Of a stretch of 64,000 nucleotides of DNA, positions 10,856-60,802 are shown in pieces. The notes under the pieces are model-generated. The model ran no database searches. It had not been told where the DNA came from and saw nothing but the letters and a program-made list of their open reading frames with translations. Position 1 is the stretch's first letter. Each line of letters begins with the position of its first letter. The position numbers were made by a program, and so were the translations under genes. Origin of the DNA: an uncultured Flavobacteriaceae bacterium (GTDB lineage: Bacteria > Bacteroidota > Bacteroidia > Flavobacteriales > Flavobacteriaceae); contig CANLWG010000009.1 of the NCBI GenBank assembly GCA_947494715.1, forward strand, positions 1,405 through 65,404, given 5' to 3'.

Positions 10856-10899
10856 TTTGAAGGTTGATCGATTTGAAAATTTGATGACATGAGAAATGA
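10853..10899 (+). repeat. Left array of degenerate ~8-nt repeats (ATTTGAAR-type) before four-helix-bundle gene
   Basis: atttgaag gttgatcg atttgaaa atttgatg; TGA recurs every 7-9 nt. Confidence 0.6.
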
Positions 10900-11254
10900 C
10901 AAAGACAACTTAGTTGTAAGGAAAACATTTGATTTTGCCTTGGATATTATTGATTACACAGAACAATTGAGATCTCTTCATAAATTTGAAATGTCTTCTC
11001 AACTTTTCAAAAGTGGAACATCTATTGGAGCCAACACATGGGAGGCCCAAAATGCTGAAAGTACTGCTGATTTTATCCATAAATTCAAGATTGCAGCTAA
11101 GGAGGCGGATGAAACTAAGTTTTGGGTTGAACTCTGTAAGGCTTCAAAACATTATCCTGATCCCCAGGAGACATTATTTTCTGACCTAAAATCGATAATC
11201 CGGATTATTTCCAAAATTATTGGTTCCAGTAAACATGGCCAATTTTCAAATTAG
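10889..11254 (+). CDS. Four helix bundle protein (TIGR02436/IVP-like family)
   Basis: QLFKSGTSIGANTWEAQNAESTADFIHKFKIAAKEADETKFW. Confidence 0.93.
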   Translation: MRNDKDNLVVRKTFDFALDIIDYTEQLRSLHKFEMSSQLFKSGTSIGANTWEAQNAESTADFIHKFKIAAKEADETKFWVELCKASKHYPDPQETLFSDLKSIIRIISKIIGSSKHGQFSN

Positions 11255-12067: not shown

Positions 12068-12163
12068 TTCATCGAAGAAAATGACCGTTCATCCTTTTCA
12101 CAACATTTTGTGAAGACTTCACAACAATAGTTTCCATTTAGCACAGCACTAAAGTACCTTTAC
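12068..12163 (+). promoter_or_regulatory. Three-box activator-type promoter
   Basis: TTCATCGA 12068-75; TTCACAAC 12097-104 and 12118-125 (21-bp period); TACCTTTAC 12155-163; same layout recurs three times at 55-61 kb. Confidence 0.7.
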
Positions 12164-12225
12164 AGAACAAATCAATTCAAAAGTTTCAGACCCCAAATCT
12201 GACTTTTTTCAAAACCCACAAATCT

Positions 12226-12333
12226 ATGGAAGCCCAAATGAACCATGCTCCGACCAAAGAAGAAATTCAAGTGTACAAAAACGATTTTTTTAGCGGTATT
12301 GTCATGTTGACCAAGAAACTATTTATGCTATAG
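12226..12333 (+). CDS. Small protein, 35 aa (MEAQMNHAPTKEEIQVYKNDFFSGIVMLTKKLFML), absent from ORF track
   Basis: ATG in A/C-rich context; own promoter upstream and terminator downstream. Confidence 0.55.
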   Translation: MEAQMNHAPTKEEIQVYKNDFFSGIVMLTKKLFML

Positions 12334-12354
12334 CATTTTGGTAAAAATTCTAAA

Positions 12355-12394
12355 AAAAGGAGCGGTATAACCTACACTGCTCCTTTTCTTTTTT
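12355..12394 (+). terminator. Rho-independent terminator
   Basis: aaaaggagcggt / actgctcctttt stem followed by T-tract. Confidence 0.75.
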
Positions 12395-12421
12395 CTAATT
12401 TTGGGTATGGGCCCAAACCAA

Positions 12422-12955
12422 ATGCATTTACTTCTTCAAAAATGCAACCAAAATGATTTGGATGAACTTGTTGAACTGTCCATAAGAACATTCAAGGATG
12501 CCTTTGAAGCGGATAACGACCCAGAAGACTTTAAAGACTACCTTCGTACTGCATTTCATAGGGATACCTTGTTGGCCGAGCTGCAGGATAAGGATGTAAG
12601 TTTCTACTTTGTTAAGGTTGATACCGAGACGGCGGGTTATTTTAAGCTGAATGAAGATTTGGCCCAGACCGAAGTAAAGTCGGGCAATAGCATCGAATTG
12701 GAACGCATCTATGTTCTAAATACCTTCCAAGGCTCAGGAATAGGCTCATGGATGCTTGACGAAATAAAGCAAATCGCTTTCGAAAAAGGAAAACAATTTC
12801 TTTGGTTGGGGGTATGGGAGAAGAATCGTAAGGCCATTAGGTTTTACCAGAGGCTGGGATTTACAAAATTCGGGATCCATCCCTATTTCATTGGAAAGGA
12901 CGAACAGACCGATTGGCTAATGCGGTTTGATTTGATTAATTTGGATCCTGAATAA
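12422..12955 (+). CDS. GNAT family N-acetyltransferase (PaiA-like)
   Basis: IELERIYV, FQGSGIG, WLGVWEKNRKAIRFYQRLGF; start likely ATG 12422. Confidence 0.92.
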   Translation: MHLLLQKCNQNDLDELVELSIRTFKDAFEADNDPEDFKDYLRTAFHRDTLLAELQDKDVSFYFVKVDTETAGYFKLNEDLAQTEVKSGNSIELERIYVLNTFQGSGIGSWMLDEIKQIAFEKGKQFLWLGVWEKNRKAIRFYQRLGFTKFGIHPYFIGKDEQTDWLMRFDLINLDPE

Positions 12956-53271: not shown

Positions 53272-53299
53272 ATTTCAGATGTGGGATATCAGATGTCAG
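53272..53299 (+). repeat. Left heptad array (4 x 7 nt)
   Basis: atttcag atgtggg atatcag atgtcag. Confidence 0.75.
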
Positions 53300-53654
53300 G
53301 TGATAAGGGATTTGAACAAATAATTTCATGGAGGAAAGCGAGAGAGCTGAATAAGGAGATTTATCGCTTGACCAAAGATTCTAAATTTTCAAAAGACTTT
53401 GCCCTAAGAGACCAGATAAGAAGAGCATCAATATCTATTTCTTCAAACATAGCCGAAGGATTTGGAAGAAAATCGAATAAGGAATTTATATATTTTTTGA
53501 ATGTCGCCCAAGCTTCATGTTACGAAGTAAAATCTCAATTATATTTGGCTTTGGATATTGAGTATATTATGGAATCTGAATTTAGTGACTCATTTGCGAT
53601 GAAATATCCAAAACAATTTTTGGACTAATAAAACATCTTGAGAAAAAGCAATAA
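53293..53654 (+). pseudogene. Four helix bundle protein with a frameshift near 53597
   Basis: LRDQIRRASISISSNIAEGFGRKSNKEFIYFLNVAQASCYEVKSQL; family-like C-terminus DEISKTIFGLIKHLEKKQ* lies in a shifted frame (53598-53654); ORF as read stops at 53628. Confidence 0.8.
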
Positions 53655-55234: not shown

Positions 55235-55264
55235 AAAAGACCCGACAATTTTGTCGGGTCTTTT
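55235..55264. terminator. Bidirectional terminator, perfect 14-bp inverted repeat
   Basis: aaaagacccgacaa-tt-ttgtcgggtctttt. Confidence 0.85.
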
Positions 55265-55345
55265 CTGTTAAGTAGGATACATTTAATTTGTTTGCACAGT
55301 CAAATAAAATCGAACTTTATATTCGGTAAAGATTTAGGTGGTGCC

Positions 55346-55365
55346 ATCCTGATAGCTATCAGGAT
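55346..55365. repeat. Perfect 20-bp palindrome (REP-like)
   Basis: atcctgatagctatcaggat. Confidence 0.85.
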
Positions 55366-55554
55366 CAATTTCCGTTAAGTTACGTTCTCTTCTGGGACAA
55401 TCATTAAACCTTTAAATACATTGCGAATGTAGTTTCATAGCATATGATGCTTAAATTTTTGTTGTGAAAGGAATAGAATTTGTTGTGAACAACGTTAAAA
55501 TGTGTTGTATCATCGATGAAATGCATAGAAAAGCACTTTAAACCTTTTTAAAAA

Positions 55555-55817
55555 TAAAAAAGCCCGGACTGTGGGGTTCGGGCCATTTTTTAGCTAAGTA
55601 GGTTATTGTAAAATTTGGACTAAGCTTTGTAGGTTAGAATTTTGGCTTGGGAAAACCTCCATTCTTTTCGGTTAAGTTCAAGGTGTCGATTTGGGGTCAA
55701 CACTATCACTTAATTACAATGTAAATGTAGTACGGATATGGGATTGTTCTAAATTATTGTTGTGAACCGATCCTAATTTGTGGTGAAATTTTTAACGGTC
55801 TTGTTTTATCGATGAAT
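55555..55817 (-). repeat. 263-bp direct repeat copy 1 (promoter + 19-codon sORF 55603-55662 + terminator)
   Basis: About 15 differences from 60541-60802 by manual alignment; sORF MEVFPSQNSNLQSLVQILQ. Confidence 0.92.
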
Positions 55818-55929: not shown

Positions 55930-58872
55930 ATGGAGATGAAACAATTACTTCTCCCCCCCTTATTATTTTTTTCTTCTTTTTTGATTTCGCAATCAAAAGT
56001 AGACAGTCTTCAATTGGGATTTGAAAATGCCCAAGAGGATACTGTCAAAATCCAGCTACTTCATGAGCTTTATTATGAGTTTGAAAATCGGGTTCCCCAA
56101 AGAGCCAGTGAAACGGCATTGAAAGCTTTAAGAATGGCAGAACGATCTGGTAATGGAGAATTACAGATCAAGAGCATTACCATATATGGAGACTTTTTGT
56201 ATTCCCAGTCCCAATATGATTCGGCCATAACCTTATATAACAATGCCTTGGAACTGGCACGAAAAAACCTTTCCATACTCGGAGAAACAGAGGCTCTTTT
56301 CGGATTGGGAAACACGTATTATAGAAAAGGCAATTTTGAAAAAGCAAAAGAGTTTCACCTGGAAAAATTAAATATTGCTAAAAAAGCAAAGGACAATGAA
56401 GGTATTGCCGGTTCATATAACAGTTTGGGTCTCATATATTCTGAACAGGGAGATTATACCAAAGCCATGGAATACTTTACTAAGTCATCCAAAATGTATC
56501 AGGAAGTAGGCCATTTAAAATACTACGGCATTACTTTAATGAGCATTGGTATGGTACAGCGTATGCTGGGCAATTATGAAATGGCGAAAAACTATTACCA
56601 AAAAAGCGACAGCATTCATATAAAAACAGATAATCTACTTGGGAGAGCCTACGTTTTTCATAATCTGGCCATAATCAATAAAAATACCGGAGCCTTTGAA
56701 GAAGCCATGATATATAATAACAAAGCACTGGAGAGCTTCCAAAAATTGGGGGATATAAAAAAAGTTGGGGAAGTATTTTACAACTTGGCCAGCATTCATA
56801 TGGAACAGGAGAGTTTTGCCAAGGCCATAAGCCATTATCATGAATCGCTTGATATTTCCCTAAAGGCCAATGACTCATTAATGATTGCTTTTTCCAACTG
56901 CGCCATAGGGGAATGCCATTTGCACCTTAAGGATTTCAATAAGGCAGAAAAACATTTATTGGAAGCGGTTAAAGTAGCCCAGGCTATTAATTTATATCCA
57001 ATTGAGATGGATGGGTACGAATATCTTTCCACAGTATACGAAACCCAGGGCGATTTTACCAAGGCTTATAAAAGCAAAAGCAAGTATTTAGTTTTAAGGG
57101 ATAGCCTGTACACCAAGGAAAAAAGAGAACTGGCCAATGAAATTGAGGCCAAATACCAAAATGAACAAAAGACAAAGGAAATTGCCCTTTTGGCATCCGA
57201 GAAGGATTTACAGACATTACAGTTGCAAAAACGGATAAACGAACGGAATGGTATTATTGCCTTTTCCTTGATCGTTCTCCTCTTGGCCGCACTAGTGTAC
57301 AATCAATATCGAATAAAGCAAGGAGCTAACAAACGCCTTCATGAATTGGACCGGTTAAAGTCCAATTTTTTCACCAATGTTTCGCACGAATTTAGGACAC
57401 CGTTAACATTGATCAAAGGACCCATTGAACAGCTAGAGCAAAATCCCGATGAAAAGCTGGGTGTGCCTACTATCAAGATGATGCGTCGTAACGCCAATCG
57501 CTTGCTCAATATGGTAAATCAGTTATTGGACCTTTCAAAAGTTGATGAAGGCAGCTTAAAACTAACGCCTACAGAAGGGGATGTGTATAAATGTTTGAGG
57601 GCTGCGGCATCCTCTTTCAATTCACATGCCGCCCAACGTTATATCGATTATAAGGTACGGATTCCGCAGGGTTTGTTATGGGCTTCCTTTGATTGGGATA
57701 AGCTGGAGAATATAGTTTATAATTTACTCGGGAATGCTTTCAAATTTAGCGAAGACGGATCAGGGATTTCCTTTCTTGTATCCTATAACGGCCAGGACCT
57801 TCAAATCGAGGTAGGTGATTCCGGAAAAGGTATTCCAGAGGAAAGGTTGCCTTTTATTTTTGATCGCTTCTATCAGGTAGACAGTAGTACCACTAAGGAA
57901 AAGGAAGGTTCGGGAATTGGGCTTTCGCTTTCCAAAGATTTGGTTGAGCTTATGGATGGGACAATTACCGTGATAAGCGAAGTAGGTAAAGGTACTTTTT
58001 TTACCATCCATTTGCCCATTTTGGAAATTCGGACAAGGCCCAAAGATGTGACGGAAACTAATGTGCCTTCAGATATAACGGAGGTAAGGCCCCAACCTTT
58101 CCAGCTGACCAAAGGAGATAAGAGAAATCTACCCAGCATTTTGTTGGTAGAGGATAATAGTGATATGAGACACTTCATAGGAGGGCAATTGATAAAAAAA
58201 TATAAGGTCAAAGAAGCCACAGATGGCAAGAGTGGGCTGCAAAAAGCGATTGCGGATTCTCCCGAATTGATTATCACCGACCTGATGATGCCCAAAATGG
58301 ACGGATTGGAACTTTGCAGAAAATTGAAGACCGATTTACGTACGAGCCATATTCCTGTAATAATGTTGACAGCCAAGGCAGGAATGAGCAATAAAATTGA
58401 AGGGTTGGAAACCGGGGCGGATGACTATCTCACCAAACCCTTTGATGCCAAGGAACTCATGGCGCGAACTAAAAATCTAATTGAACAACGGCAAAAACTA
58501 AGAGAACTCTATAGCACCAAAGAAACCCATATAGACCCTAAAAGGATTACCCTCACCTCTATTGATCAGAGGTTTTTGGAAGAGGTTTTGTCCCTTTTAG
58601 AAGAAAATTATTCGGACTCAAGTTTTGGGGTACCTAAAATGCAGACGGCCTTGGCCATGAGCAAGACCCAATTACATCGGAAATTAAAAGCATTGACGAA
58701 CGAGGCCCCTGGGGAGCTACTCCGGAACTTTCGTCTAAAAAGGGCCGCACAATTATTATCCCAGAAAGCGGATAACGTTACCCAGATTGCCTATAAAGTA
58801 GGTTTTAACAATCTCTCCTATTTCGCCAAATGCTTTAAGGAGCTCTATGGGGTGGCACCTTCTTCCTATTAA
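55930..58872 (+). CDS. Hybrid two-component sensor (TPR sensor, TM, HisKA, HATPase, receiver, AraC HTH)
   Basis: TPRs; NVSHEFRTPL; DKEGSGIGL-like G-box (EKEGSGIGL); LIITDLMMP; KVGFNNLSYFAKCFK. Confidence 0.96.
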   Translation: MEMKQLLLPPLLFFSSFLISQSKVDSLQLGFENAQEDTVKIQLLHELYYEFENRVPQRASETALKALRMAERSGNGELQIKSITIYGDFLYSQSQYDSAITLYNNALELARKNLSILGETEALFGLGNTYYRKGNFEKAKEFHLEKLNIAKKAKDNEGIAGSYNSLGLIYSEQGDYTKAMEYFTKSSKMYQEVGHLKYYGITLMSIGMVQRMLGNYEMAKNYYQKSDSIHIKTDNLLGRAYVFHNLAIINKNTGAFEEAMIYNNKALESFQKLGDIKKVGEVFYNLASIHMEQESFAKAISHYHESLDISLKANDSLMIAFSNCAIGECHLHLKDFNKAEKHLLEAVKVAQAINLYPIEMDGYEYLSTVYETQGDFTKAYKSKSKYLVLRDSLYTKEKRELANEIEAKYQNEQKTKEIALLASEKDLQTLQLQKRINERNGIIAFSLIVLLLAALVYNQYRIKQGANKRLHELDRLKSNFFTNVSHEFRTPLTLIKGPIEQLEQNPDEKLGVPTIKMMRRNANRLLNMVNQLLDLSKVDEGSLKLTPTEGDVYKCLRAAASSFNSHAAQRYIDYKVRIPQGLLWASFDWDKLENIVYNLLGNAFKFSEDGSGISFLVSYNGQDLQIEVGDSGKGIPEERLPFIFDRFYQVDSSTTKEKEGSGIGLSLSKDLVELMDGTITVISEVGKGTFFTIHLPILEIRTRPKDVTETNVPSDITEVRPQPFQLTKGDKRNLPSILLVEDNSDMRHFIGGQLIKKYKVKEATDGKSGLQKAIADSPELIITDLMMPKMDGLELCRKLKTDLRTSHIPVIMLTAKAGMSNKIEGLETGADDYLTKPFDAKELMARTKNLIEQRQKLRELYSTKETHIDPKRITLTSIDQRFLEEVLSLLEENYSDSSFGVPKMQTALAMSKTQLHRKLKALTNEAPGELLRNFRLKRAAQLLSQKADNVTQIAYKVGFNNLSYFAKCFKELYGVAPSSY

Positions 58873-58897
58873 CACTTTCCAAATTCCTGTTCATTCG

Positions 58898-58924
58898 GGA
58901 ACTATGCTGTTACCATCTGGAACC
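58898..58924 (+). promoter_or_regulatory. Tandem GGAACY boxes 21 bp apart (candidate AraC-domain binding site)
   Basis: ggaact 58898-903 and ggaacc 58919-924 between the sensor gene and its downstream gene. Confidence 0.45.
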
Positions 58925-59010
58925 TTACTATTAGCCATTCGAGCACGCAAGCCATAGTTTTGACATATCTGGTCCCCTAAAATCAATTATTCATTCTAAA
59001 GGAGGTAACT

Positions 59011-60009
59011 ATGGAATTAACAAGACAAAACCGAAGGGGTATTGTATTCAATGCGCTGTACAAATTAATTCCCCAGGCCTTACTGTTAATCGCTTTTTTT
59101 GCGATGATAATATGTTTAACGCTATTATTGAGTTGTAGCAACGGGGATGATACAACGGGTTCGCAAGGTGCCGGAATAGGTGATGTAATGGGGTCGGTAG
59201 AAGATGAGAATGGGAACCCATATCCCAATACTGTAGTAAAACTTTCTACGGGTGCAGCTTTCATCGAAACAAAAACCGATTCCAATGGAAATTTTGACTT
59301 TAATGATGTTGCCGGGGGAACACATGAAGTTACCATAAGTCTTCCATTATCTACAGAGGGAGTTACCAATACCTCCACCGCCATTAATGTTCAGGACAAT
59401 CAAACGATTACGGTTGATTTTGTCATCCGCCCTTTGCAAGTAAAGGCACACTTAAATTTTGGTAATGTACAATTACTGGAGGAAATAAAAGATGAGAACG
59501 GAAACACACCTACTGATCCCGATGAGCCCTTGTATGCTGAGAATATCTTTGATGAACCATTGGGTCTTTTAACGGCAATCAAGACTCCGGATGGCGAACA
59601 TGTTACACTATCCGAATTTAAAACGGCCCAAGGAAATCTGATGGTGCATTGCAATGGAGACACTTCCATTGTCGAAATTGCCTTAGAAGGTATGATACCT
59701 AACGGAACCTATACATTTTGGCTCGCCTATCTCAATAAAACAAGAAGCGTGGGCGAGCCCATAGACTTTGCAAATGATTTTGTCAATTTCACAAACCCTC
59801 CCATTGGATCTGCGTCAGGTACGGAAAATATAGTTGTAGCTACTGAAGATGGAACCATTAACACATCACTTCAACATACTTCCTGCATTCTAACGGACGA
59901 GGTTGCTCTTGTTATTCCTGTGCTGTACCATATCAATGGAAAGACGTTTGGAGGTGGACATGTGCCGGATCCCGAGGAAATGGTTCAAATGTTGGCTTAC
60001 TTTCAATGA
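59011..60009 (+). CDS. Lipoprotein with carboxypeptidase-regulatory-like (Ig-like) domain and uncharacterised C-terminal domain
   Basis: Lipobox LSC; GSVEDENGNP...TDSNGNFDFNDV; C-term GMIPNGTYTFW, LYHINGKTFG. Confidence 0.8.
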   Translation: MELTRQNRRGIVFNALYKLIPQALLLIAFFAMIICLTLLLSCSNGDDTTGSQGAGIGDVMGSVEDENGNPYPNTVVKLSTGAAFIETKTDSNGNFDFNDVAGGTHEVTISLPLSTEGVTNTSTAINVQDNQTITVDFVIRPLQVKAHLNFGNVQLLEEIKDENGNTPTDPDEPLYAENIFDEPLGLLTAIKTPDGEHVTLSEFKTAQGNLMVHCNGDTSIVEIALEGMIPNGTYTFWLAYLNKTRSVGEPIDFANDFVNFTNPPIGSASGTENIVVATEDGTINTSLQHTSCILTDEVALVIPVLYHINGKTFGGGHVPDPEEMVQMLAYFQ

Positions 60010-60063
60010 TTGGCAGGGTCAAATAAAATTCAATAGTTCCCAAAATATAACATCATTTAAAAA

Positions 60064-60543
60064 TTGAAGAACATGGAAATGAAAAGAAACAAAGAAGCGC
60101 GTATTGTTTTGAATACAGTACAAAGAGTTATGGCAACCTTTCTACTTGTAATGGTTTTAGCCAATTGCAGCAAAGATGATGCCGCTCCAGAAAGTTCTAT
60201 TAGGCTGGGTGCCTTGAGTCTTTCCGAGAATGGGGATTGCAATCACAGCAGTGGGGTAACGGGAACCTCATTTGGAATTTTGATTCCATATAGCGGTACT
60301 CAGGACGATACGCTTATCCGAATATTATATAAACTTATCCCTGAAGGAGGGGATGCAATTGAGCGTACAGCAAATTATAATGATTTTTCCTTAAAGGATG
60401 GAAGCGGGGAAATGACATGGAACTCCTGTTTGCGTTTTTTTGATGTGAGCTTTATTGATTTGGAAATACGTATAGAAACTGCGGATGGGATAATAAGCAG
60501 TGTGTCCAAAATAAAGATTAACAAACCCGATGGTGCCAATTAA
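60064..60543 (+). CDS. Hypothetical lipoprotein
   Basis: Lipobox LANC-SKDD; start possibly ATG 60073. Confidence 0.75.
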   Translation: MKNMEMKRNKEARIVLNTVQRVMATFLLVMVLANCSKDDAAPESSIRLGALSLSENGDCNHSSGVTGTSFGILIPYSGTQDDTLIRILYKLIPEGGDAIERTANYNDFSLKDGSGEMTWNSCLRFFDVSFIDLEIRIETADGIISSVSKIKINKPDGAN

Positions 60544-60802
60544 AAAAGCCCGGACTGTGAGGTTCGGGCTTTTTTTAGCTAAGTAGGTTATTGTAAAATT
60601 TGGACTAAGCTTTGTAGGTTAGAATTTTGGTTTGGGGAAACCTCCATTCTTTTCGGTTAAGTTCAAAGTGCTGGTTTGGGGTCAACACTATCACTTAATT
60701 ACAATGTAAATGTAGTACGGATATGGGACTGTTCTAAATTATTGTTGTGAACCGATCTTAATTTGTAGTGAAAATTTTAACGGTCTTATTTCATCGATGA
60801 AT
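60541..60802 (-). repeat. 262-bp direct repeat copy 2 (promoter + 19-codon sORF 60588-60647 + bidirectional terminator)
   Basis: Near-identical to 55555-55817; sORF MEVSPNQNSNLQSLVQILQ; terminator aaaaaagcccggac...gttcgggcttttttt. Confidence 0.92.

Follow-up and report, generated by a model that had tools for sequence, protein, structure and literature searches.

We studied a 64,000-nucleotide (nt) stretch of DNA from the genus Ulvibacterium, here called the window; positions refer to it unless a contig is named, the C-numbered contigs making up the rest of the 5.97-Mb assembly. At positions 12068 to 12394, an earlier note on this DNA had proposed a stand-alone transcription unit for a 35-residue protein, and when we reread the sequence, every landmark on which that proposal was built proved to be in place. 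On the plus strand, TTCATCGA starts at 12068, at the head of an upstream near-palindrome, TTCATCGAAGAA (TTCnTCGAnGAA; 12068-12079), that lies 50 bp 5′ of the proximal member of a pair of boxes. TTCACAAC starts at 12097 (+29) and again at 12118 (+50), and the boxes themselves are two 9-bp direct repeats, TTCACAACA, at 12097-12105 (distal) and 12118-12126 (proximal). Between the palindrome and the distal repeat lies a conserved block, ACCGTTCAT (12084-12092; consensus ..acc.TT.aT..). The proximal repeat abuts the region of a candidate Bacteroidetes -33 element, TTTC (12131-12134), which we assign from its spacing and for which the orthologue consensus is AATAATTTAG. TACCTTTAC begins at 12156, 30 nt past the proximal box, where we place a sigma-A -7 box, TACCTTTA (12156-12163; consensus TAnnTTTG/A). 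The 5′ leader contains a predicted hairpin (12179-12207) with the loop CCCCAAA at 12191-12197, an inner stem TCAGA/TCTGA, and an outer stem AAAAG/CUUUU; the motif GACCCCAAATC lies at 12189-12199, 37 nt 5′ of the ATG. The gene for the 35-residue protein (MEAQMNHAPTKEEIQVYKNDFFSGIVMLTKKLFML), hereafter the short open reading frame (sORF), spans 12226-12333 and is followed by an intrinsic terminator at 12355-12394 (12-bp stem, 9-nt loop, U tract; -15.8 kcal/mol, z = -5.6), which a simple terminator scan overlooked because its loop is 9 nt long. A gene for a PaiA-like GNAT protein begins 6 to 27 nt past the terminator (window 12394-12424).

Comparison among relatives establishes that the sORF is a gene. 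A profile of its orthologues identified 163 loci in GTDB species genomes, and we fetched 80 of these, all from genera or genomes beyond the window and covering more than 15 named genera (Ulvibacterium, Maribacter, Arenibacter, Zobellia, Eudoraea, Pricia, Sediminicola, and others). Conservation of the peptide had been put forward in the earlier note as a check, and the open reading frame (ORF) is intact in 80/80 loci, with an ATG, 33 to 35 codons, the residues KLFM[L/F], and a stop. Over the last 24 codons, which align without gaps, pN/pS is 0.12 at a pS of 0.83, the third codon position is variable in 23 of the 24 codons, and stops abound in the other two frames. The DNA of relatives also differs by in-frame 3- and 6-nt insertions or deletions in addition to synonymous substitutions. 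This pattern of substitution indicates that the 35-codon ORF is a genuine protein-coding gene under purifying selection.

The protein belongs to a narrowly distributed family. A profile search of 301 sampled genomes of the bacterial family gave a strong match in 55, with one copy per genome, and among these sampled genomes the distribution is limited to one clade of marine Flavobacteriaceae. Only 26 clusters were recovered from 1.84 billion representative proteins; 25 of them comprise proteins of 32 to 59 amino acids (aa) with the match at the C terminus, and the exception is a weak match to a repeat protein. Family members are 32 to 36 aa long and share a single alpha-helix and an invariant C terminus, KKLFM[L/F/I], with conservation extending over the whole helix and beyond the C terminus alone. 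AlphaFold2 (64 sequences) predicts one helix at residues 7 to 34, with a predicted local distance difference test score of 79 overall and 89 to 94 in the C-terminal half. This helix is neither transmembrane-like nor strongly amphipathic and has a net charge of 0: no 18-residue window exceeds a hydrophobic moment of 0.28 or a mean hydrophobicity of 0.25 on the Eisenberg scale, and uncharged hydrophobic runs extend to 9 residues at the longest. Searches of Pfam, NCBIfam, PADLOC, PHROGs, and PDB with the peptide returned no significant match, the best being a PHROG of unknown function (E = 0.03), and orthologues carry the label “hypothetical protein” in Zobellia, Arenibacter, and Pricia (CAZ95863.1 in Zobellia galactanivorans). 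In the published literature, we found no relevant account of the TTCACAAC box in Flavobacteria, of LytTR in Flavobacteriaceae or Zobellia, of the protein accessions, or of KKLFML. The protein family is previously undescribed. One genus has the sORF in duplicate, in tandem upstream of the GNAT gene, with one copy diverged (E = 1e-3; G128:C1:176492-177459).

The promoter is conserved as well. Across 30 genera, the upstream regions can be aligned gap-free from 60 nt 5′ to 60 nt 3′ of the proximal box, giving the consensus ..TTyATCGA.. ACCGTTCAT.. TTTTTCACAACA-N12-TTCACAACAATAATTTAG-N~20-TAnATTTA..TGTAATTAA. A double-box promoter (score above 12) is present 89 to 118 nt 5′ of the ATG in 77/80 loci. 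The proximal box is exact in 68 of the 77 distinct orthologous promoters, the distal box is near-invariant at a fixed register across the 30 genera, and the -7 box stands at a fixed +38 from the proximal box in 62 of the 77. From the end of the proximal repeat it is 4 nt to the -33-like TTT and 30 nt to the conserved -7 box. In maps of flavobacterial transcription start sites, the sigma-A -7 box TAnnTTTG spans -12 to -5 (PMC9723704), which would place the start near 12168 and the two boxes at -71 to -63 and -50 to -42. The block ACCGTTCAT may be an extra weak half-site (TTCAT). About half of the orthologous promoters keep part of the palindrome, TTyATCGA, at a constant offset, and it occurs also in the promoters of other genera's small RNAs (sRNAs).

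A terminator starts 16 to 28 nt past the stop codon in all loci; 73/80 satisfy strict criteria, and the remainder have bulged stems. Promoter and terminator are kept whether the gene follows scoAB (73/80 loci), follows the PBP1a gene, or adjoins hflX. With a promoter and a terminator of its own around a conserved ORF, the sORF is indeed the stand-alone small-protein unit that had been proposed. The leader between promoter and ORF also has conserved motifs: CCCAA is found in 65 of the 75 distinct orthologous leaders (background, 8%), CCCCAAAT in 43 (background, 0.2%), and AACC[TC]A near the ATG in 35 (background, 1%). The C-rich motif usually lies within a short hairpin loop, the arms of which covary modestly (3.94 bp, against 3.44 ± 0.14 for re-paired arms). 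A 5′ TGTAATTAA block is kept in the orthologous leaders of other genera and has been lost from the window's own leader.

The arrangement of the boxes points to the type of regulator. They are 9-bp direct repeats separated by a 12-bp spacer, with a period of 21 bp (TTCACAACA-N12-TTCACAACA). Operators of LytTR response regulators consist of two direct repeats of 9 to 11 bp, 11 to 13 bp apart (PMC4847170, PMC2766830), and lie directly upstream of the core promoter (PMC2766830, PMC4847170, PMC4227749). The repeats at 12097 and 12118 have the layout of the sites of AgrA, ComE, PlnC, and YpdB, and judged by this layout the box pair is a LytTR-type operator. The window holds 7 copies of TTCACAAC where 2.5 would be expected, and 0/100 shuffles gave as many as 7; the count of GACCCCAAATC taken alone in the window is not significant. 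The full combination of the palindrome with two TTCACAACA boxes occurs exactly four times in the 5.97-Mb genome, always within the window: in this unit and in the three units at 55 to 61 kb (A, B, and C) whose promoter architecture had been noted as the same. The box offsets are +29/+50 in units A and C (55.8 and 60.8 kb, minus strand), identical to those at 12068, and +31/+52 in unit B. Units A to D, as we call these four, are alone in joining the boxes to the upstream palindrome, which suggests a second input on four promoters, with the near-palindrome TTCnTCGAnGAA as a second operator.

We then asked how widely the box pair is used. A position weight matrix (PWM) trained on the sORF promoters alone found 21 sites in this genome. 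With a pattern allowing up to 2 mismatches, nine related complete genomes that encode the candidate regulator described below each contained 10 to 19 matches, against 0 to 4 for a reversed control pattern, or 128 against 19 in total, an approximately 7-fold enrichment. Nine complete genomes of the same family that lack the regulator showed no enrichment of the box pair (11 matches against 35 for the control). A motif at background frequency and a peptide without conservation had been named in the earlier note as grounds for refutation, and neither was what we saw. The idea there of a dispersed regulon of tiny genes held in part: the operator is shared by dispersed promoters, but members of ordinary size are present as well, including genes for an extracytoplasmic function (ECF) sigma factor, an OmpA-like protein, leucine-rich repeat (LRR) proteins, and a histidine kinase. 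The sites upstream of the ECF sigma, OmpA-like, and LRR genes have orthologous counterparts in 5 to 7 genera. Together, these sites outline a candidate regulon of about 10 to 15 promoters, among which are those for sRNAs, small ORFs, an ECF sigma factor, and surface proteins.

Further box pairs were seen elsewhere in the assembly. One (PWM score, 25.8) is followed by a tandem pair of genes for 56-aa DUF6747 membrane proteins (C14:~104100-104870), which are likely further tiny members of the same regulon. Others stand upstream of genes for a protein with a type IX secretion C-terminal domain (T9SS-CTD; C7:107296), a collagen-repeat protein (C40:2153), and a PAS kinase (C21:45224); early in each of these mRNA leaders is (G/T)ATCCCAAA or GACCCCCAAAT, resembling the sORF leader.

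The sites track one regulatory locus. A REC-LytTR response regulator, identified by domain assignment, is encoded at C1:878449-879198, and a kinase with a signal peptide, periplasmic TPR repeats, a transmembrane segment, and HisKA_2 and HATPase domains is encoded at C1:879973-881940. Two of the best PWM sites flank an sRNA-like unit between these two genes, and the kinase gene itself has a box pair. In 28 of 30 other genera, PWM sites lie approximately 60 to 650 nt downstream of the REC-LytTR gene, all on the same strand; the regulator loci hold 45 PWM matches against about 0.4 expected, with none elsewhere in the loci, and the TPR kinase gene follows the regulator gene in 29 of 30. Regulator orthologues are 86 to 97% identical across the sORF-bearing genera and clearly apart from paralogues. 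The regulator is present in 54 of the 55 sORF-positive genomes, the exception being a genome that is 83% complete. A site beside the gene in 28/30 genera, the enrichment of the motif, and the co-occurrence in 54/55 genomes thus all associate the operator with this regulator, and we infer that it is the activator of the box-pair promoters. Another eleven genomes encode the regulator, in its more divergent orthologues, but no sORF; from this, the sORF seems to have joined a regulon older than itself.

The sRNA-like unit beside the regulator gene has a counterpart. Two copies of an sRNA-like unit of ~90 to 110 nt, at C1:879274-879445 and C6:285088-285260, share the block TTTTTTCATTTTCATATAGTGTTCTCGTAAAAGAG and a terminator, and both are preceded by a TTCACAACA-type box pair; the C1 copy is the one between the LytTR regulator and TPR kinase genes.

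The units at 55 to 61 kb, all on the minus strand, turned out not to be small-protein genes. Unit A (55555-55817) has the palindrome and two-box promoter and specifies an sRNA of ~165 nt with CCCCAAA-type loops and two AACCUAC motifs; unit C (60541-60802) is a near-copy of it; unit B (55235-55530) shares the promoter module, differs in its sRNA body, and has a separate terminator. Relatives have lost the ATG of a 19-codon ORF in units A and C but retain the RNA blocks and terminator; from this comparison we conclude that both are noncoding sRNAs and not peptide genes. Nor is the sequence between the motifs wholly unrelated, as had been stated, since AACC(T/C)AC near the ATG of the sORF is common to the sRNA units. 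The loop motif CCCCAAAU and AACC(U/C)AC occur both in the sORF mRNA leader and in sRNA units A and C, which makes a post-transcriptional factor common to the sORF mRNA and the sRNAs likely. A search of the genome for an antisense partner or complementary target of these RNA motifs gave none, predicted pairing of the regulon sRNAs with the sORF mRNA did not surpass that of shuffled controls, and the genome has neither CsrA nor Hfq. Rfam 15 gave 0 matches in the window at the gathering score, and unit D and the sRNA loci had only chance-level matches at E ≤ 1. RNAalifold on the seven sRNA copies returned a weak consensus (-3.6 kcal/mol, 2 covarying pairs), the set of sequences being too small and too uniform for proof of a structure.

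A 5-kb cassette encoding a TPR-HisKA-REC-HTH_AraC hybrid sensor and two lipoprotein-like proteins (window 55930-60543) is bracketed by units A and C. Three relatives have DUF3078, units B and A, and hflX in this place without the cassette, which therefore looks like an insertion accompanied by duplication of the sRNA unit.

Based on these observations, we consider it probable that the element is a monocistronic unit for a real 35-residue protein under a LytTR-type activator-dependent promoter, and that it belongs to a regulon that also includes sRNAs. In the mechanism we propose, positions 12068 to 12394 would form one transcription unit, giving a transcript of ~225 nt for a cytoplasmic protein. 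Transcription would start at an activator-dependent Bacteroidetes sigma-A promoter with its two TTCACAACA repeats directly 5′ of the -33/-7 elements, and the LytTR-type response regulator would bind, as dimers, the 9 + 12 + 9 repeat layout. On signals from the TPR/HisKA_2 kinase, the REC-LytTR regulator would switch on a dispersed regulon consisting of the small-protein gene, the sRNA genes at 55 to 61 kb, the two further sRNA-like units, and genes for the ECF sigma factor and cell-surface proteins. Units A to D would receive their second input through the upstream palindrome TTCnTCGAnGAA, and a factor acting post-transcriptionally on the leader and the sRNAs would do so through CCCCAAAU and AACC(U/C)AC. 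As for the protein, we suggest only tentatively that it might be a helix-mediated modulator or binding partner of a cytoplasmic protein in the same pathway, for instance in feedback on the kinase or the regulator.

Several observations weigh against this interpretation. The leader hairpin is weak on its own (z = -0.4) and absent in Eudoraea. The presence of CCCAA 55 to 76 nt past the proximal box in 8 of the genome's 21 sites (background, 10%), and anywhere within the scanned range of +46 to +136 in 9 of the 21, speaks for shared RNA motifs, but the pattern was defined post hoc, after viewing the data. The co-occurrence of sORF and regulator is confounded by shared ancestry, all positives forming one clade, and the genome encodes many LytTR paralogues. 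Finally, no analysis gave a pointer to a specific partner or function for the protein.

We considered several other explanations. The position of the unit ahead of the PaiA-like GNAT gene raises the question of whether it is a leader peptide or attenuator, in which the sORF and terminator control read-through into that gene and a ribosome could stall at KKLFML-stop. The ORF, terminator, and GNAT gene are co-oriented, with GNAT downstream in 64/80 loci, and the stop-to-terminator distance is short and constant, at the 16 to 28 nt given above. Moreover, no room is left for a separate GNAT promoter past the terminator in this genome, and transcription of this acetyltransferase gene must therefore, in this genus, come through or from within the sORF unit. 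However, the sORF and terminator are fully kept with a convergent aminotransferase gene downstream (Zobellia, L118, L154), and likewise where the GNAT gene is elsewhere or absent (G007, G247, G249), so a co-oriented downstream gene is not always there. The GNAT gene also occurs in ~30 genomes without the sORF, and it is the whole helix that is conserved, not the C terminus alone. We rejected a GNAT leader peptide as the general explanation and regard it as very unlikely. A dual-function RNA, acting both as the mRNA for the 35-aa protein and, via its sRNA-like leader (the CCCCAAAU loop and AACCUAC), as a regulatory RNA, would be compatible with the monocistronic protein gene that we favor, and RNAIII of staphylococci is such a dual mRNA and regulatory RNA. 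The leader has two conserved blocks in common with units A and C (the CCCCAAAU loop and AACC(U/C)AC), the leaders of other genera also keep a 5′ UGUAAUUAA block, and one promoter module drives both kinds of transcript. Yet the search of the genome for a complementary target or partner was negative, the regulon sRNAs pair with the mRNA no better than random sequence, and conservation of the leader motifs could equally mean control of the mRNA in cis; we judge a dual role unlikely. The C-rich loop motif is displayed by the multicopy sRNAs, the small-protein mRNA, and several other regulon mRNAs, and one could imagine titration of the Csr/Rsm kind, in which LytTR-induced decoy sRNAs would sequester a putative RNA-binding protein for C-rich (CCCCAAAU) loops and free the loop-bearing mRNAs, including that of the 35-aa protein, or else the 35-aa protein would itself be part of the RNA-binding machinery. 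This we hold to be distinctly improbable.

The remaining alternatives concern the regulator and the peptide. The boxes might be bound not by a LytTR protein but by the AraC-type hybrid sensor-regulator (TPR-HisKA-REC-HTH_AraC; window 55930-58872), the gene for which is divergently transcribed from unit A. Direct repeats with a period of 21 bp serve AraC-family proteins as well, so the phasing of the boxes would fit. Each repeat, however, is a single 9-bp block, unlike the two-part AraC half-site, and the sites track the LytTR locus in 28/30 genera. Ulvibacterium relatives and one further genus have units A and B between DUF3078 and hflX but no hybrid gene there; the cassette is therefore an insertion specific to this genome, in which alone it separates A from C. 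We rejected the hybrid as the common regulator, its position not being conserved, and its binding to the boxes seems highly improbable. Equally improbable, in our estimation, is an exported signaling peptide resembling ComC, BlpC, or an autoinducing peptide (AIP), the invariant C terminus of which the kinase would detect with its periplasmic TPR domain in an autoinduction loop. The candidate cognate kinase does have such a domain, and its gene a box pair; the TPR fold often binds peptide termini. But the peptide has no signal peptide and no double-glycine leader consensus (the only candidate, S23-G24, is without the hydrophobic -4/-7/-12 pattern), there is no ABC or C39 exporter among the sORF neighbors, and there would be two membranes to cross. 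The precedent comes from Firmicutes, where LytTR operators typically drive peptide-pheromone genes (PMC2766830). Pheromones usually diversify, whereas this peptide is near-invariant across genera. A membrane-active peptide, either type I toxin-like or a surfactant resembling phenol-soluble modulins (PSMs) and delta-toxin, would suit a small, helical product without a signal peptide and with a hydrophobic C-terminal half, and in Staphylococcus, AgrA directly activates PSM/delta-toxin-type genes. The predicted helix nevertheless has neither transmembrane length nor strong amphipathicity, as the hydrophobic moment, mean hydrophobicity, 9-residue hydrophobic run, and net charge of 0 reported above attest. 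The gene is single copy, syntenic, and under strong purifying selection, and PADLOC gave no match; a membrane-active peptide is scarcely credible.

By analogy with known systems, the favored protein-gene unit comes nearest in its logic to the staphylococcal agr outputs and to small proteins, such as MgrB, whose genes a two-component system induces. The differences from these lie in phylum, promoter type, operator sequence, and sensor type. In the agr system of Staphylococcus aureus, the LytTR regulator AgrA recognizes a pair of direct repeats immediately upstream of the core promoter (PMC4227749). The promoters of P3-RNAIII/hld and the psm genes resemble the predicted one described here in this arrangement. 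In both systems, a LytTR regulator would switch on a regulatory RNA and very small helical peptides without signal peptides, which in our case we infer from sequence, and one transcript can serve as mRNA and regulatory RNA. Here, in contrast, the promoter is of the Bacteroidetes -33/-7 type in another phylum, the box sequence is TTCACAACA, there is no agrBD-like autoinducer machinery, the kinase is of the periplasmic-TPR HisKA_2 type, and the peptide is neither amphipathic nor lytic and is far more conserved. PhoQ/PhoP-MgrB, EvgS/EvgA-SafA, and Sda-KinA offer a second likeness, a gene for a tiny protein in a two-component regulon with proposed direct protein-protein binding to a signaling component. 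MgrB and SafA are membrane proteins, whereas the protein here has no transmembrane segment and no relationship to them in sequence or fold, and its feedback role is hypothetical. The GacS/GacA-RsmY/Z-RsmA (Csr) pathway is similar in that a two-component system drives several sRNA genes via one conserved upstream sequence and in that the sRNAs and some mRNA leaders show the same short motif in hairpin loops. The motif here is C-rich (CCCCAAAU) instead of GGA, the genome has neither CsrA nor Hfq, and the regulator is a LytTR protein and not of the FixJ/NarL type.

In Flavobacteriia, a dominant group among marine polysaccharide degraders, small proteins and control after transcription have hardly been explored. 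The present analysis defines a new, tightly conserved family of small proteins of 33 to 35 residues and supplies an explicit cis element, TTCACAACA-N12-TTCACAACA, together with a candidate pair made up of a REC-LytTR regulator and a periplasmic-TPR kinase. As Z. galactanivorans encodes a family member (CAZ95863.1), the predictions are directly testable there; the species is said to have been used for genetic analyses by Zhu et al. in 2017, a study cited in PMC9723704.

Across loci, the neighbors of the sORF include scoAB and genes for GNAT, a beta-lactamase-like protein, an aminotransferase, PBP1a, and HflX (hflX). A functional link to scoAB was considered and rejected, the sORF promoter being kept where scoAB is absent or the locus is rearranged. 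In the window, a gene for a 121-aa four-helix-bundle protein of the 23S rRNA intervening-sequence protein family (10889-11254) is inserted between scoA and scoB, which are adjacent in most other genera, and a similar gene is found at 53281-53628.

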